From the sequence record PQ416618.1: a stretch of 64,000 bases of DNA, one strand, 5' to 3'. The position numbers and the translations under genes are program-made. Positions 30,379-34,642 of the stretch are shown here, in pieces (the stretch's first letter is position 1; each line of letters starts with the position of its first letter). Under the pieces are notes generated by a model, which saw nothing but the letters and a program-made list of their open reading frames with translations, was not told the DNA's origin and did no database searches. Source of the DNA: Escherichia phage vB_VIPECOMC06.

Positions 30379-30400
30379 GGAGGACTCCGGTCCTCCTTTT
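30379..30400 (+). terminator. Rho-independent terminator
   Basis: ggaggac-tccg-gtcctcc hairpin followed by TTTT. Confidence 0.65.
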
Positions 30401-30419
30401 GGATAATAAAGGAGTTAAC

Positions 30420-31016
30420 ATGCGAAACCAAAATAATGATATTGACTCAATGTTCGAAGAGTTCCGAAATAAGGTAAATCCACCTACGTCTTTAGTTGAT
30501 TCATTACGATATGTTGCAACTGGACGTAAATGGTACTGGTCGTCTTCTTATGAGACAACTGAATATGCAAATAACCGAAAATCTTTATTAGCCCCAGGTA
30601 TTATGATTCATGATATCGGAGCTATTGCTAAACTAGTTGCAGACCATGATATTAGATTCACTGATTTCGTTGCTCCTACGTGGTCTGTTTGTTGTTTAAA
30701 CACTGAATGGGACTATATCAGTGAACGCTCTGAAGATTATTATGGTTTTAGAGATAAGCTCTTAAGGTCTAACATGTTTTATATCGATACTGAAGTTCTA
30801 GTCGATAATAAAAAATATTACTTTACGTTAATCGTCGATTCTGAAACTATGTATGAAGGCAAGCCTTTGCTTAAAAGAGTTGATGCTTTAAGTGCTATTG
30901 ATGCGCTTTATGAAACCATGGTTGTTAGTCCTAATTTCACTAACAATTTAATCCTTGAGCAATTTATTATGGAATGTAGAGAATATGTCAAAGCCAACCC
31001 TGTACATGCCAAGTAA
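30420..31016 (+). CDS. Hypothetical protein ending in the FIMECR junction motif
   Basis: 198 aa from MRNQNNDID with AAAGGAG SD; C-terminus ...EQFIMECREYVKANPVHAK. Confidence 0.45.
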   Translation: MRNQNNDIDSMFEEFRNKVNPPTSLVDSLRYVATGRKWYWSSSYETTEYANNRKSLLAPGIMIHDIGAIAKLVADHDIRFTDFVAPTWSVCCLNTEWDYISERSEDYYGFRDKLLRSNMFYIDTEVLVDNKKYYFTLIVDSETMYEGKPLLKRVDALSAIDALYETMVVSPNFTNNLILEQFIMECREYVKANPVHAK

Positions 31017-31380
31017 GCCCTGGGCGTATGAATACAAACGTAAATTAATCCCAAATGAAGTACTATTTGGCCCTATTTTAGCTTTAGCATTTTTAATCTT
31101 TATGATTATAGGAGCTATTTTAGATTCCAATAAAGTTATATCATCTGATGCAGTGTTTTTACTTATTATAGCCGGGTCGTTTATTGTACCATTTTTATTA
31201 ATGCCTATTAACTGGGTGGGATATTGGTACCAAGGACGTCATCACAGAGCCCGATTAAGAGAATGGAAAGTTCAGTGCGCAAAAGCCCAAGCTCAGTATG
31301 ATGAAGCTGTTAAAAAGTATGAATATGAAGAAGCTATGGAATTCGTTAAGGAAATAAGATGCAAAAGCCTCAACTCTTAA
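30985..31380 (+). CDS. Small membrane protein (FVKEIRC-tail family)
   Basis: 131 aa from MSKPTLYMP; two hydrophobic segments; C-terminus ...MEFVKEIRCKSLNS. Confidence 0.5.
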   Translation: MSKPTLYMPSKPWAYEYKRKLIPNEVLFGPILALAFLIFMIIGAILDSNKVISSDAVFLLIIAGSFIVPFLLMPINWVGYWYQGRHHRARLREWKVQCAKAQAQYDEAVKKYEYEEAMEFVKEIRCKSLNS

Positions 31381-31718
31381 CCGTATGGCCTTCTCTTGGC
31401 GAGAACATTCTAATTTTTATTATGAGTATTGGCATGGGATTTGCCTTTGGATTAGTTGGATTTCTTATTGACGGCGTTGTGTTAGGATTTATAGGGAACA
31501 CTGGTGGATTCACAGACCAATGGCAGGACTTACGGTATACCCAAGCCTTTGCATCCATCGCATCCTTTTGTACTGTAGTCTATTTTTACTACGATTTTAT
31601 AAACCATAACAAGAAAAATAAAAAGGTTTACGCTTCTCAAATGATTAGTTATAATGAACTCCTAGCTAGACGTGAAAATGAAACAATAGAAAACTTTATT
31701 AAGGAATGTAGAAAATGA
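31359..31718 (+). CDS. Small membrane protein (FIKECR-tail family)
   Basis: 119 aa; hydrophobic segments; C-terminus ...ENFIKECRK; AAGGAA SD. Confidence 0.5.
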   Translation: MQKPQLLTVWPSLGENILIFIMSIGMGFAFGLVGFLIDGVVLGFIGNTGGFTDQWQDLRYTQAFASIASFCTVVYFYYDFINHNKKNKKVYASQMISYNELLARRENETIENFIKECRK

Positions 31719-32020
31719 GTAAGATTATTGAAATTAAAGTACCAGAGTTTAATGATGCCAAATCCGCTTCAGATGCAATTTATAAACTTCTGAATCAAGC
31801 TGAACGTATCGAAGAAGAAGCAACAAAGATCGCAGACCAATATGCTGTATCATTTTCTGTAGGTGATTACGGTAGCGGTCGTACTTATTATCCTAAGGGT
31901 GAAATTGTATCCCAGTGGATGAAAGATGAAATTGAAAATAATGGTGGTGATGTTAAACGTGAAGGTAATGGTTACGTTATTACTGAAGGTGCTTGGGTTT
32001 CGTCTTCTGCGATGTGCTAA
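31715..32020 (+). CDS. Hypothetical protein, member of a tandem paralog triplet (C-terminal W-V-S-S-S..C)
   Basis: 101 aa; C-terminus EGAWVSSSAMC; the next two ORFs share this tail. Confidence 0.5.
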   Translation: MSKIIEIKVPEFNDAKSASDAIYKLLNQAERIEEEATKIADQYAVSFSVGDYGSGRTYYPKGEIVSQWMKDEIENNGGDVKREGNGYVITEGAWVSSSAMC

Positions 32021-32029
32021 GGAATCATT

Positions 32030-32302
32030 ATGTCTAAAGAACAAACCGAACTGGCCGAAGCCGTAGAAAAAATCTATGCAGCTATTGAGGCTGCCAAAGA
32101 AATTGCTGATAAACAAAACACAACATTCGACTTGTATCCAGCTTATGGTATGGGTGGAACCTATCATTCACCTGGACAACTTAAAGCCGATCTTGAACGT
32201 TGTACAAAAAACGGCTATGCTGAATGGGCTGACGTTTACCAATACGACTACAACCTGAGCCTCGAAACCGGTGGTTGGATTGCATCTTCTCACACTTGCT
32301 AA
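32030..32302 (+). CDS. Hypothetical protein, paralog triplet member
   Basis: 90 aa; C-terminus GGWIASSHTC. Confidence 0.5.
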   Translation: MSKEQTELAEAVEKIYAAIEAAKEIADKQNTTFDLYPAYGMGGTYHSPGQLKADLERCTKNGYAEWADVYQYDYNLSLETGGWIASSHTC

Positions 32303-32311
32303 GGAAATCAT

Positions 32312-32509
32312 ATGTCTCGTGAATTAGATTGTGCTGTACGTACGGCAGTAGCTGCTCTGGAAAACCTGTTCCAAATTGCAACAGAAGAACGCGAAGAAGT
32401 TACATTATGGATTGAAGATAACGCAGGTCTGAATCTCCAGAATGCAATCTCGGTATCAAATAATAGTATTACTGTTCAAGGCTGGGTATCATCTAGTTAT
32501 TCTTGCTAA
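32312..32509 (+). CDS. Hypothetical protein, paralog triplet member
   Basis: 65 aa; C-terminus QGWVSSSYSC. Confidence 0.5.
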   Translation: MSRELDCAVRTAVAALENLFQIATEEREEVTLWIEDNAGLNLQNAISVSNNSITVQGWVSSSYSC

Positions 32510-32513
32510 AACA

Positions 32514-32543
32514 GTTTACAACAAGATAGGGCTATGTTATAGT
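32514..32543 (+). promoter_or_regulatory. Early promoter/stem-loop cassette
   Basis: gtttacaacaagatagggctatgttatagtagtcctatc (palindrome atagg.../...cctat over -10). Confidence 0.5.
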
Positions 32544-32571
32544 AGTCCTATCAAATTAAATGGAGTCCACA

Positions 32572-32811
32572 ATGATTTATTACGAAAGTATCGGAACCAA
32601 AGTGGTTGGTAAAACCATTACTCGTGAAAAGTTTGCAAAGATATTCGATATGCGTTATAAAAAATCTGAACACAAAGGCATCAGATTCGAAGATGCACAC
32701 TGTACAATTTGCCCTTATAATGAAGACATAAATGGTACAATCGTTCCATTGGTAGAGGCTTCACATGACGACCTCTGGGATGAATATAATATCGCATGTC
32801 GCGAAATTTAA
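32572..32811 (+). CDS. Hypothetical Cys/His-containing small protein
   Basis: 79 aa from MIYYES with GGAG SD. Confidence 0.4.
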   Translation: MIYYESIGTKVVGKTITREKFAKIFDMRYKKSEHKGIRFEDAHCTICPYNEDINGTIVPLVEASHDDLWDEYNIACREI

Positions 32812-32839
32812 GTTAATGAATTAATCCGAGGAAATTATT

Positions 32840-33796
32840 ATGATGTTAGTTATTGGTTCTCGTGCACTTCACTATCATGGACTTATTGATTCTAACGCTA
32901 TCAAAAATAGTGACTGGGACTTTATTGCGGACCAAGGTTCTTGGAATACATTCAAAAATCAAATGATGGGTGTATATGTTCACCAAGATAACCCTGATGT
33001 CCAAGTTTTCAAATGCTTCCATAACGGACGCGAAACTCATTTTGAAGCATATATTGTTCCGGCAATCACTAATGTCCGTGAATTAGTCGGTGAACTCACT
33101 CCTGAAGATTTCACGTCTTCTTACGACCTTTTAAAATACGCCAAGAAAAATTTAACTAAAGACCGTTTGAACGGGTTTTACTGGGCAACTCCTGGGATGT
33201 GTCTTGCAATTAAGATGTCTCATCGTTTCAAGAAAAATAATCCATTCTTTTTAAAGACTATGAACCATATTCAGTATCTTCGTGGTAAAGGTGTTACACT
33301 GAACGATGAACTTACTGAAATTATGCTGAAACGCCAGAAAGAAACCTTGAACTATGCTCACCCAGTTCTTGACACTTCTAAAAGTGCGTTCTTTAAAGAT
33401 GACATCTATACATATGACCATGATACTATTCATGAAGCCATTGCACTAACAGACCGTCCAGCATATACATTTTATATGAAAGACGGTTCTGAAGTCATGA
33501 CCTCACGCGAGAAGTTTGAATCATTACCAGAAATGGTCAAATTGGCCGGTGTATACGAAGAATCATGTGTACTAGCATTAGAACGTTCTCAGATTCCTAA
33601 TGACTTTAAAATTAACCCTGAATCCAGTTTCATGATGGCATTGGAAAAAGTCTGTACAAGCATCACCTCCGGTTGGTTCCGTGAGTATGCCTGGGAAAAC
33701 TACAGCAAAGTAGTAAGTATGTACCAAAGCTTAGGACATGATGATTACGTCAAACGTTTCAAACAAAATTTCCATATGGTAAAACCTTTCAAATAA
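32840..33796 (+). CDS. Hypothetical 318-aa protein, possibly nucleotidyltransferase-fold
   Basis: N-terminus LVIGSRALHYHGLIDSNAIKNSDWDFI loosely fits a pol-beta NTase G-S...D-x-D signature, but the spacing is atypical; GAGGA SD. Confidence 0.35.
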   Translation: MMLVIGSRALHYHGLIDSNAIKNSDWDFIADQGSWNTFKNQMMGVYVHQDNPDVQVFKCFHNGRETHFEAYIVPAITNVRELVGELTPEDFTSSYDLLKYAKKNLTKDRLNGFYWATPGMCLAIKMSHRFKKNNPFFLKTMNHIQYLRGKGVTLNDELTEIMLKRQKETLNYAHPVLDTSKSAFFKDDIYTYDHDTIHEAIALTDRPAYTFYMKDGSEVMTSREKFESLPEMVKLAGVYEESCVLALERSQIPNDFKINPESSFMMALEKVCTSITSGWFREYAWENYSKVVSMYQSLGHDDYVKRFKQNFHMVKPFK

Positions 33797-33866: not shown

Positions 33867-34172
33867 ATGAAATTAGGCGAAACCAACCGAATTGGTCTTT
33901 TAACAATATTTGCATCACCTTTTTACGCAGCCCTTTCTGTTGCAGTATTACAAAAGGCTTACGATATGGATGGTGTTCCTGGTTTTGTATTCTTATCGCC
34001 GTTTTTGCTATTCGTTGGAGCATTGTTATTATATGCCACGACTAGTTTCGACCATAACGTCTGGGTCAATTATAAATGTAAATTGTCTGAAGAAGAACAC
34101 GCGGAAGCTCGTAAAAAAGCTATTGAATCTACTAATCTAGAAAATTTCATTAAAGAATGTCGAGGAAAATAA
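33867..34172 (+). CDS. Small membrane protein (FIKECR-tail family)
   Basis: 101 aa; two hydrophobic segments; C-terminus ...LENFIKECRGK. Confidence 0.5.
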   Translation: MKLGETNRIGLLTIFASPFYAALSVAVLQKAYDMDGVPGFVFLSPFLLFVGALLLYATTSFDHNVWVNYKCKLSEEEHAEARKKAIESTNLENFIKECRGK

Positions 34173-34243: not shown

Positions 34244-34642
34244 GTGAAACATATTTGCCAAGAATTTAAAATCGACCAGCCAGCAGGTATTATCGTGAAC
34301 AGATACATTAATGGATATCAACCTATCGATGAAGTAATACGAACAACCCAAGCTGAGCTTGAAAAGTTTTTCAATAAGTGCCAATGGATAACAGGATGGA
34401 TTATATTTGTACCATCGGTATGGTTTTTTAGTACTAAAGTAAGTGCCTTTGCCGTACTAGATATTATCGCCATCTTATTAGCATCTATTATCATAAGTGT
34501 TGTTGGTGGCATCATTGGCGGCGGTACCGCCGCCATCATTATTAATCTTATTAAAAGTAGTTTACAAGAACGTAAAGACAAGATAAAAGCCAAGAATAAT
34601 GAAGTTGAACGTTTTATTACCGAATGCAGGAATTTGAGATGA
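34244..34642 (+). CDS. Small membrane protein (FITECR-tail family), non-ATG (GTG) start
   Basis: 132 aa; no in-frame ATG in the N-terminal two-thirds and no clear SD; hydrophobic core with GG-rich segment; C-terminus ...ERFITECRNLR. Confidence 0.35.
   Translation: MKHICQEFKIDQPAGIIVNRYINGYQPIDEVIRTTQAELEKFFNKCQWITGWIIFVPSVWFFSTKVSAFAVLDIIAILLASIIISVVGGIIGGGTAAIIINLIKSSLQERKDKIKAKNNEVERFITECRNLR

Follow-up and report, generated by a model that had tools for sequence, protein, structure and literature searches.

Enzymes of the Pol-beta fold include protein nucleotidylyltransferases that act on small proteins, namely GlnD on PII, GlnE on glutamine synthetase and MntA on HepT, and also MdcG, by which a serine of a small carrier protein receives a nucleotide-derived group. 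GlnD also carries an HD removal domain, and MntA-HepT is a type VII toxin-antitoxin system in which a minimal nucleotidyltransferase AMPylates its HEPN partner. Our study concerns a locus that invites comparison with these systems, found in a 64,000-nucleotide stretch of Escherichia phage vB_VIPECOMC06 (PQ416618.1; hereafter the window). Three adjacent small open reading frames (ORF1 to ORF3) encode proteins with a common C-terminal tail that ends in cysteine, and they are followed on the same strand by a gene encoding a 318-residue protein (32840-33796, + strand), the ortholog of RB69ORF134c and a member of phrog_2141, with the Pfam domains DUF7277 (residues 2-101) and DUF7275 (residues 120-305). 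We refer to the latter protein as the partner. The tail ORFs and the DUF7277-DUF7275 gene probably form a functional unit in many large phages. The combination of one to four Cys-terminated small proteins with a bipartite enzyme-like protein matches no described system, and neither component could be assigned to a characterised family; its mode of action may yet prove to be a form of protein nucleotidylylation.

The resemblance to GlnD-PII and GlnE-glutamine synthetase lies in an enzyme of the G[GS]...DxD...E type with a second domain containing many invariant His and Asp residues and, in the case of GlnD-PII, in a small folded protein partner with a conserved Gly/Tyr-rich loop. However, the partner has no significant match to GlnD, GlnE or any nucleotidyltransferase family of Pfam, and the small proteins have no match to the PII fold, their conserved residues being a Ser-Ser pair and the terminal Cys rather than the T-loop Tyr. 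In MntA-HepT, too, the genes for a protein with a nucleotidyltransferase motif and for its small cognate form a tightly linked, co-oriented pair, but the module described here is phage-encoded and was not found in the bacterial genomes sampled (with the exact pattern YGMGGTYY), has one to four small proteins per enzyme and an enzyme of about 300 residues with an extra conserved domain, and gives no PADLOC or HEPN/MNT Pfam match. A possible analogy is offered by CitX and MdcG, which place a nucleotide-derived group on an invariant Ser of a small (about 80-100 residues) acidic carrier, the acyl carrier protein (ACP) of citrate lyase or malonate decarboxylase, although no sequence or fold similarity was detected, the carrier Ser of the ACP is near the N-terminus and no CitG-like gene occurs near the tail ORFs. 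Direct membership, established with hidden Markov models (HMMs), was found in phrog_899 for ORF1 (E 2e-23) and ORF2 (E 1.8e-18), in phrog_4882 for ORF3 (E 1.6e-36), and in phrog_2141 and DUF7277/DUF7275 for the partner; these entries have no assigned function, do not unite the proteins of the ORF1 and ORF2 types with that of ORF3, and record neither the tail motif nor the linkage. The literature searched contained no mention of the module's gene names, DUFs or PHROGs and nothing relevant on the motif, and a paper on the nucleotidyltransferase of phage Emajogi proved to be about a Gad2-like gene unrelated to the partner.

Three paralogous subtypes with a near-invariant chain end

The window comes from a Mosigvirus (RB69-like, T4-type), and many Mosigvirus genomes match its region 31000-33000 with 96-98% identity. 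In annotated relatives, ORF1-3 are flanked by e.3 on one side and RB69ORF135c/134c on the other, within the tRNA-to-lysozyme accessory region, and all of their products are listed as hypothetical. ORF1 (31715-32020, 101 residues) is the ortholog of RB69ORF139c, ORF2 (32030-32302) has 90 residues and ORF3 (32312-32509, 65 residues) is the ortholog of RB69ORF136c, all on the + strand. A preliminary description of this DNA had reported three adjacent ORFs with a common tail and Cys as the last residue, which the ORF list and a six-frame scan confirmed: ORF1 ends in EGAWVSSSAMC, with W-V-S-S-S-A-M-C at 31994-32017, ORF2 in GGWIASSHTC, with W-I-A-S-S-H-T-C at 32276-32299, and ORF3 in QGWVSSSYSC, with W-V-S-S-S-Y-S-C at 32483-32506, each on the + strand and immediately followed by the stop codon. 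The expression W.[SA]SS..C-stop had three matches in all six frames of the window, each at the end of one of these ORFs, compared to a chance expectation of 0.005 per window estimated from 200 shuffled windows.

The proposal that the three proteins are tandem paralogs was borne out. Pairwise BLASTP among them is weak but consistent (E 1e-4, 1e-3 and 3e-4), and subtype profiles from which the last 10 residues had been removed still match each other, with hhalign probabilities of 99.2% for A-B, 98.5% for A-C and 99.0% for B-C and E-values of 1e-15 to 4e-19, indicating that the proteins are similar beyond the tail. The idea of a portable tag on unrelated bodies was rejected, as a tail-less HMM of the family matches every body of types A and B and roughly half of those of type C, and the C bodies outside this match have the same helix-strand architecture as the rest of the family. 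Subtype A (ORF1) has a long N-terminal helix, an F-S-V strand, a DYGSGRTYYP loop, an inserted helix and beta-hairpin, and a tail in x-M-C. Subtype B (ORF2) consists of a helix, an F-D-L strand, an AYGMGGTYH loop (YGMGGTYY in the consensus of the type), a variable linker and the tail, and is the core type, present in nearly every locus. Subtype C (ORF3) has the helix and tail of A and B and lacks the Gly-rich loop. The three subtypes recur together in unrelated phage groups, for example in Phapecoctavirus and in jumbo phages, which speaks for an old subfunctionalisation rather than a recent arms-race expansion. The diversifying selection that had also been proposed is rejected by the comparison of ORF1-3 with four close Mosigvirus relatives, where the ratio of nonsynonymous to synonymous substitution rates is 0.04-0.17 (0.04-0.10 for ORF1 and 0.08-0.16 for ORF2) and resembles that of neighbouring genes; these values show that ORF1-3 are real genes under purifying selection.

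To see the tail in its wider family, we scanned 1.84 billion representative sequences by HMMER with the ortholog alignment of the small proteins (cut-off E<=1e-3), which gave 140 matches, nearly all of 60-170 residues and with the match reaching the last residue. Seven giant repetitive proteins among them (P0059 and similar) have neither loop nor tail and were discarded as false positives, and the small-protein family amounts to about 130 clusters at 50% identity. The terminal Cys is the exact end of the chain in 123 of the 131 small representatives at this level of identity, and seven have one extra residue. Within the 123 Cys-ending representatives, which have a median isoelectric point (pI) of 4.5, the Trp at position -7 and the Ser at -4 are invariant (123/123 each), the Ser at -3 is found in 122, position -5 is S, A or P, and the terminal Cys is the sole Cys of the protein in 77. 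Positions -2 and -1 are specific to the subtype, being x-M in A, Q-[ST] in B and aromatic in C. Every ortholog retrieved by word-indexed searches keeps the tail, with the Trp, the Ser-Ser pair and the terminal Cys invariant in their alignment, in agreement with the conserved tail of the preliminary description. The family consensus reads as an N-terminal amphipathic helix ending in ...A..IAD, an F-x-F strand followed by the YGMGGTYYP loop, an acidic variable linker of 10-40 residues and the tail G-W-x-[SAP]-S-S-x-x-C-COOH, and it is the tail that constitutes the only near-invariant element over the approximately 130 clusters, being retained in subtype C despite the loss of the loop. Within the samples searched, the family appears restricted to phage contigs; the YGMGGTYY pattern found no relative among the genomes of 185,579 bacterial and archaeal species, a test that reaches only as far as this exact peptide pattern.

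In one subfamily, a single protein contains two copies of the motif (...F-E-D-W-Q-S-S-S-C-Y-G-E-G-D-D-G-F...G-V-W-H-S-S-S-C), with an internal W-x-S-S-S-C, a YGxG-like segment after it and a terminal W-x-S-S-S-C that is devoid of the x-x spacer. Its members occur in five of the loci that we collected (L045 3371-3631, L029 7451, L040 8177, L069 4406 and L090 4573).

The AlphaFold2 model of ORF1, based on a 17-sequence alignment, has a mean predicted local distance difference test score (pLDDT) of 89.3 and shows a helix (residues 15-43), two strands (47-49 and 56-59), a second helix (67-75), three further strands (79-83, 86-91 and 93-96) and a turn (97-100). Within the tail, W94-S96 belong to strand 93-96 and S97-M100 form a short helical turn, with lower confidence for the final residue. 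Foldseek comparison of this model to the PDB, known sponges included, gave no fold match (best E 0.41), searches of Pfam, NCBIfam and PADLOC with ORF1-3 returned nothing above threshold, sequence and profile searches of the PDB with the small-protein family returned only noise, and the matches in BFVD were all uncharacterised members of the same family. The position of the tail in the model fits with a mainly structural or metal-binding role, in which the Trp would anchor the last strand, the Ser-Ser pair would cap the turn, the thiolate and carboxylate of the terminal Cys would bind a metal or link subunits, and the A, B and C proteins would assemble as homo- or hetero-oligomers with an indirect link to the partner. 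The subtype-specific preferences at positions -2 and -1 and the presence of two W-x-S-S-S-C units in single proteins of one subfamily can be understood in the same way, as can the frequency of the terminal Cys as sole Cys, which means that any Cys-based site must be intermolecular. We nevertheless consider a mainly structural or metal-binding role to be rather improbable, since structure alone rarely fixes the exact end of a chain, which here is the Cys itself or, in a few cases, the next residue, and since it leaves the near-obligate linkage to the partner and the fixed gene order unexplained.

A further possibility, which develops the sponge or inhibitor idea of the preliminary description, is that the small proteins act on their own as binders, serving as sponges that take up nucleotides of immune signalling or as inhibitors of proteins of the host, with the aromatic-bearing, Gly-rich YGMGGTYY loop as the ligand site and the partner as a separate enzyme whose place in the same pathway would account for the linkage. 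Like the sponges Acb2/Vs.4, Tad1, Tad2 and Acb4, the tail proteins are small, acidic and, by prediction, early-expressed phage proteins; they are apparently phage-restricted, and subtypes A and B share a conserved Gly/Tyr-rich loop. Phage nieznany has a vs.4 (Acb2-like) gene inside its tail-ORF array, and several phages have genes for NAMPT, Sir2 and ADP-ribosyltransferase close to the partner or to one of its relatives. Yet subtype C keeps the tail without the loop, the invariant terminal Cys is given no role by this explanation, and selection is purifying and not diversifying. Moreover, no sequence, profile or fold similarity to the sponge families, including the solved sponges in the PDB, and no PADLOC match was detected, and these families have neither an invariant C-terminal Cys nor an obligate enzyme partner. 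We therefore view stand-alone binding, too, as rather unlikely.

Near-obligate linkage to a DUF7277-DUF7275 gene

The gene neighbourhood of the small proteins was analysed in both directions. A scan of IMG/VR for the peptide YGMGGTY gave 39 loci, located on T4-like contigs of about 168-177 kb, jumbo contigs of 355-390 kb and contigs of 20-150 kb; most of the loci contain two or three adjacent tail-bearing ORFs, the range being one to four small proteins per partner. Clustering of the same-strand neighbours revealed a single family common to different phage groups, the approximately 300-residue partner, in 37 of 40 tail-anchored loci; in the other three, the contig ends before the expected place of the gene. 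In all 37 evaluable loci, the partner is located downstream of the tail ORFs, at a distance of 0-1.4 kb and on the same strand. IMG/VR contains 216 partner loci, and 80 IMG/VR loci anchored on the partner served as a reverse test that is unbiased for the small-protein motif. ORFs with the strict motif are present in 71 of these 80, all upstream and on the same strand, and in the roughly 850 kb of these loci none lay downstream or on the minus strand. Five more have an ORF immediately upstream with a variant tail (W-V-Q-S-S-C, W-D-S-S-T-C, W-L-Y-S-S-E-S-C, W-D-G-S-S-C or W-E-S-S-E-S-S-E-C) and one has no upstream sequence, bringing the proportion of evaluable loci with a tail ORF to at least 76 of 79; three loci (L077, L094 and L095) apparently have none. 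The genetic pairing of a transferase-like gene and a small protein is therefore conserved from whichever side it is approached (37/37 and at least 76/79).

The partner was detected by tblastn in 734 of 50,697 GenBank phage records, and the same pairing was found in five further groups of this database (Otagovirus, Phapecoctavirus, Lazarusvirus, Menderavirus and Xanthomonas phage X1). Tail ORFs adjoin the partner in Pseudomonas phage phiPsa374, Escherichia phage nieznany and Acinetobacter phage Apostate, and lie just downstream of it in Xanthomonas phage X1 and Stenotrophomonas phage BUCT608. The pairing thus spans T4-like phages, jumbo phages of 355-390 kb and phages of 60-150 kb, and no other neighbour is common to these groups. 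In T4, e.3 directly abuts e.2 with no module at this place, and there is no tail motif in 55-80 kb.

The putative enzyme and the possible role of the tail

The Pol-beta nucleotidyltransferase superfamily is defined by the motif G[GS]...D-h-[DE]-h with a later h-E-h, which was reportedly set out by Holm and Sander in 1995 and by Aravind and Koonin in 1999. The N-domain of the partner has a signature of this type, G6-S7...D25-x-D27...E69, of which G6, D25 and D27 are found in 36 of 36 distinct partner homologs, S7 in 35 and E69 in 34. Its pattern among the homologs, hhhGSxA-x(9-17)-D-h-D-h ... h-E-h-E, agrees with the superfamily motif hG[GS]-x(9-13)-D-h-[DE]-h and the acidic residue on a later strand, and the spacing is canonical in several homologs, e.g. 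that of locus L012, GSQAFDMGREPRDTD. Homologs in two GenBank records bear the label 'nucleotidyltransferase'. The C-domain contains a large set of invariant or near-invariant residues (K125, S127, H128, R129, K139, T140, R148, R165, H174, D193, H194, D195, H198, E240, E241, E248, R249, K270, G278, W279, R281 and E286) and looks like an active site that is metal-dependent or that binds nucleic acids or nucleotides. T4 nrdC.11, annotated as a nucleotidyltransferase in RefSeq (L054 436-1446), was considered as a homolog and rejected, as only S-D-h-D-F could be aligned (hhalign probability 0.2%); T4 therefore has a different nucleotidyltransferase-like accessory gene elsewhere.

The explanation to which we tentatively lean, and which we hold to be a fair way from certain, is that the partner is an enzyme with the small proteins as its substrates or subunits, and that the tail is their shared docking or modification site. 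According to this model, ORF1-3, as subtypes A, B and C of one small, acidic, folded family composed of a helix, a small beta-sheet and the W-x-x-S-S-x-x-C-COOH tail, would form a conserved early-gene module with the downstream protein of about 300 residues. The partner, from its motif, would be an enzyme with a Pol-beta-type nucleotidyltransferase N-domain and a C-domain resembling a metal-binding or basic active site, and the small proteins its dedicated protein substrates or obligate subunits. The invariant tail, with its Ser-Ser pair and free terminal Cys, would serve for docking or covalent modification, the candidate chemistry being O-nucleotidylylation of Ser or a reaction at the thiol or carboxylate of the Cys, and the divergent A, B and C bodies might confer different downstream activities in host take-over or counter-defence. 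Near-obligate linkage to an enzyme-like gene, the strongest clue and one that is absent from the preliminary description, argues for an enzyme-substrate or enzyme-subunit relationship rather than for free-standing binders. The fact that the tail is the only element common to all subtypes, including the loop-less subtype C, fits with a shared handle for a common partner, and the fixation of the chain end itself suggests that the free carboxylate and thiol matter. A further reason is that the Pol-beta fold includes the protein-modifying enzymes named at the outset.

The same linkage data could also be accounted for if the small proteins regulate the partner without being its substrates, i.e. as inhibitors, antitoxin-like proteins or specificity subunits, whose acidic bodies and tail would occupy or shape a basic active site and whose A, B and C copies would adjust the activity of the enzyme or its selection of targets. 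The acidic nature of the small proteins and the many invariant Lys and Arg residues of the partner C-domain are compatible with such an arrangement, and there is precedent, in MenT/MenA and AbiEii/AbiEi, for toxins of the nucleotidyltransferase fold that pair with a small cognate protein. On the other hand, one to four different small proteins per enzyme would be unusual for an antitoxin, there is no sign that the partner is toxic, and simple inhibition leaves the strict requirement for a free C-terminal Cys unexplained. Regulation of the partner is in our opinion unlikely, although worth keeping in mind.

Several observations weigh against the substrate or subunit model as a whole. The assignment of the partner as a nucleotidyltransferase rests on a short motif: family-wide scans of Pfam and PHROG returned only DUF7277, DUF7275 and PHROGs of unknown function, with no nucleotidyltransferase or HD family (DUF6036 reached E 0.25 in one of 25 family members), and searches of the PDB by phmmer and with full-length and N-domain profiles of the partner gave no significant match. 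The single-sequence AlphaFold2 model of the partner was unusable (pLDDT 35.5). The inclusion of the tail Trp and first Ser in a beta-strand of ORF1 implies that the tail is not a free, flexible tag and that its conservation may be partly structural. Tail ORFs are absent from the vicinity of a distant full-length partner homolog (26% identity) in DSS3_VP1 and of the relatives of about 250 residues that match the partner only in its DUF7275 part (32-34% identity), which are found in Streptomyces phage Wakanda, Gordonia phage Yvonnetastic, KVP40 and Vibrio phage K412 (L050-L053). Lastly, phage genes can be linked because they are regulated together or serve a common pathway, and not because their products are in direct contact.

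A more specific version of the substrate model is that the DUF7277-DUF7275 enzyme covalently modifies the S-S-x-x-C-COOH end, either by placing a nucleotide-derived group on a Ser or by a nucleotidylylation-driven elimination of Ser leading to a thioether ring with the Cys. This is a speculative proposal, to which we attach a low probability; if it were true, the small proteins would constitute a previously unknown class of post-translationally armed phage effectors, with the A, B and C bodies directing the modified tail to different host targets. The ring chemistry also recalls ribosomally synthesised and post-translationally modified peptides (RiPPs), of which the small proteins might be precursor-like relatives, with the S-x-x-C-COOH end forming a lanthionine or aminovinylcysteine (AviCys)-type thioether ring after activation of the Ser. 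The AviCys ring of epidermin-type peptides has this topology, with a Ser at position -3 relative to the C-terminal Cys. The tail proteins have a Ser at this position in all but one of the Cys-ending representatives, and a co-encoded enzyme-like gene is present. Nonetheless, there is no conserved HFCD decarboxylase, LanB/LanM/LanKC dehydratase, protease or exporter nearby, and no Pfam domain of lanthipeptide enzymes was found in the five flanking ORFs scanned along with ORF1-3 or in the partner family. Furthermore, the tail is predicted to lie within a folded domain and sheet and not in a free core peptide, and the genes are intracellular early genes of virulent phages. A precursor function of this kind seems to us extremely improbable.

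Neither component of the module has a named function or a solved relative, and a near-invariant W-x-x-S-S-x-x-Cys chain end tied to one enzyme-like gene offers a clear experimental handle, which could lead to a new protein modification or to a new mechanism of host take-over or counter-defence. Even a modest function would leave phrog_899, phrog_4882 and DUF7277/7275 unified as one module with a simple motif for annotation. The records that carry the partner include many therapeutic-candidate T4-like phages, Phapecoctavirus, Acinetobacter, Pseudomonas and jumbo phages.

Expression signals and neighbouring genes

The junctions between ORF1, ORF2 and ORF3 have 9-nucleotide spacers and read TGC-TAA-GGA(A)-ATCAT(T)-ATG, with an overlap between the stop codon of one gene and the Shine-Dalgarno site of the following one, and the stop of e.3 and the start of ORF1 overlap as ATGA. 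Junctions of the same type, with 9 nucleotides and overlapping stop and Shine-Dalgarno site, also occur in distant loci, indicating coupled expression. A promoter-like site, TTTACG-17-TATAAT, which is a consensus match only, is located within e.3 upstream of ORF1 (31627-31655, + strand), and the equivalent position in OL960576 is annotated as a T4 middle-type promoter. Directly after ORF3 is a second consensus match, resembling a T4 early promoter (GTTTAC..., TTTACA-17-TATAGT with TG; 32515-32543, + strand), which precedes an 83-residue ORF and the partner and is overlapped by a hairpin annotated as a terminator in OL960576. These predicted sites fit early or middle transcription of the module. 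Early or middle expression is typical of phage genes for host take-over and counter-defence. The 83-residue ORF (32560-32811, + strand), the ortholog of RB69ORF135c and a member of phrog_3723, encodes a C-x-x-C motif (H-C-T-I-C) and a further Cys, and is situated between ORF3 and the partner gene. We examined whether it might be a third core component and dismissed this, since its cluster is present in 11 loci, limited to T4-like loci and L040; it is thus probably not a core part of the module.

The vs.4 homolog of Escherichia phage nieznany (NC_052659), an Acb2-like anti-CBASS sponge gene, is located at L045 3138-3413, between tail ORFs and directly upstream of the partner, hinting at a neighbourhood of counter-defence genes around the module. 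Genes related to NAD (NAMPT, ribose-phosphate pyrophosphokinase, Sir2 and a putative ADP-ribosyltransferase) occur within a few kb of the partner or of its DUF7275-only relatives in several phages that are unrelated to each other (L046, L048, L049, L052 and L053), which may be a coincidence of the accessory region.

A second family of paralogs flanks the Cys-tail array and the partner in the window. It consists of five ORFs on the + strand, the e.5-, e.4- and e.3-like ORFs (30399-31016, 30955-31380 and 31359-31718) and two located downstream (33867-34172 and 34244-34642), with their own C-terminal motif, [EN]-x-F-[IV]-x-E-[CI]-R with 0-12 residues after it, as in the endings ENFIKECRK, ENFIKECRGK, ERFITECRNLR, EQFIMECRE... 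and EFVKEIRCK.... Most of these proteins have apparent hydrophobic, possibly membrane-spanning stretches. Similar endings are found in L077, in several ORFs near the partner gene and mostly downstream of it.

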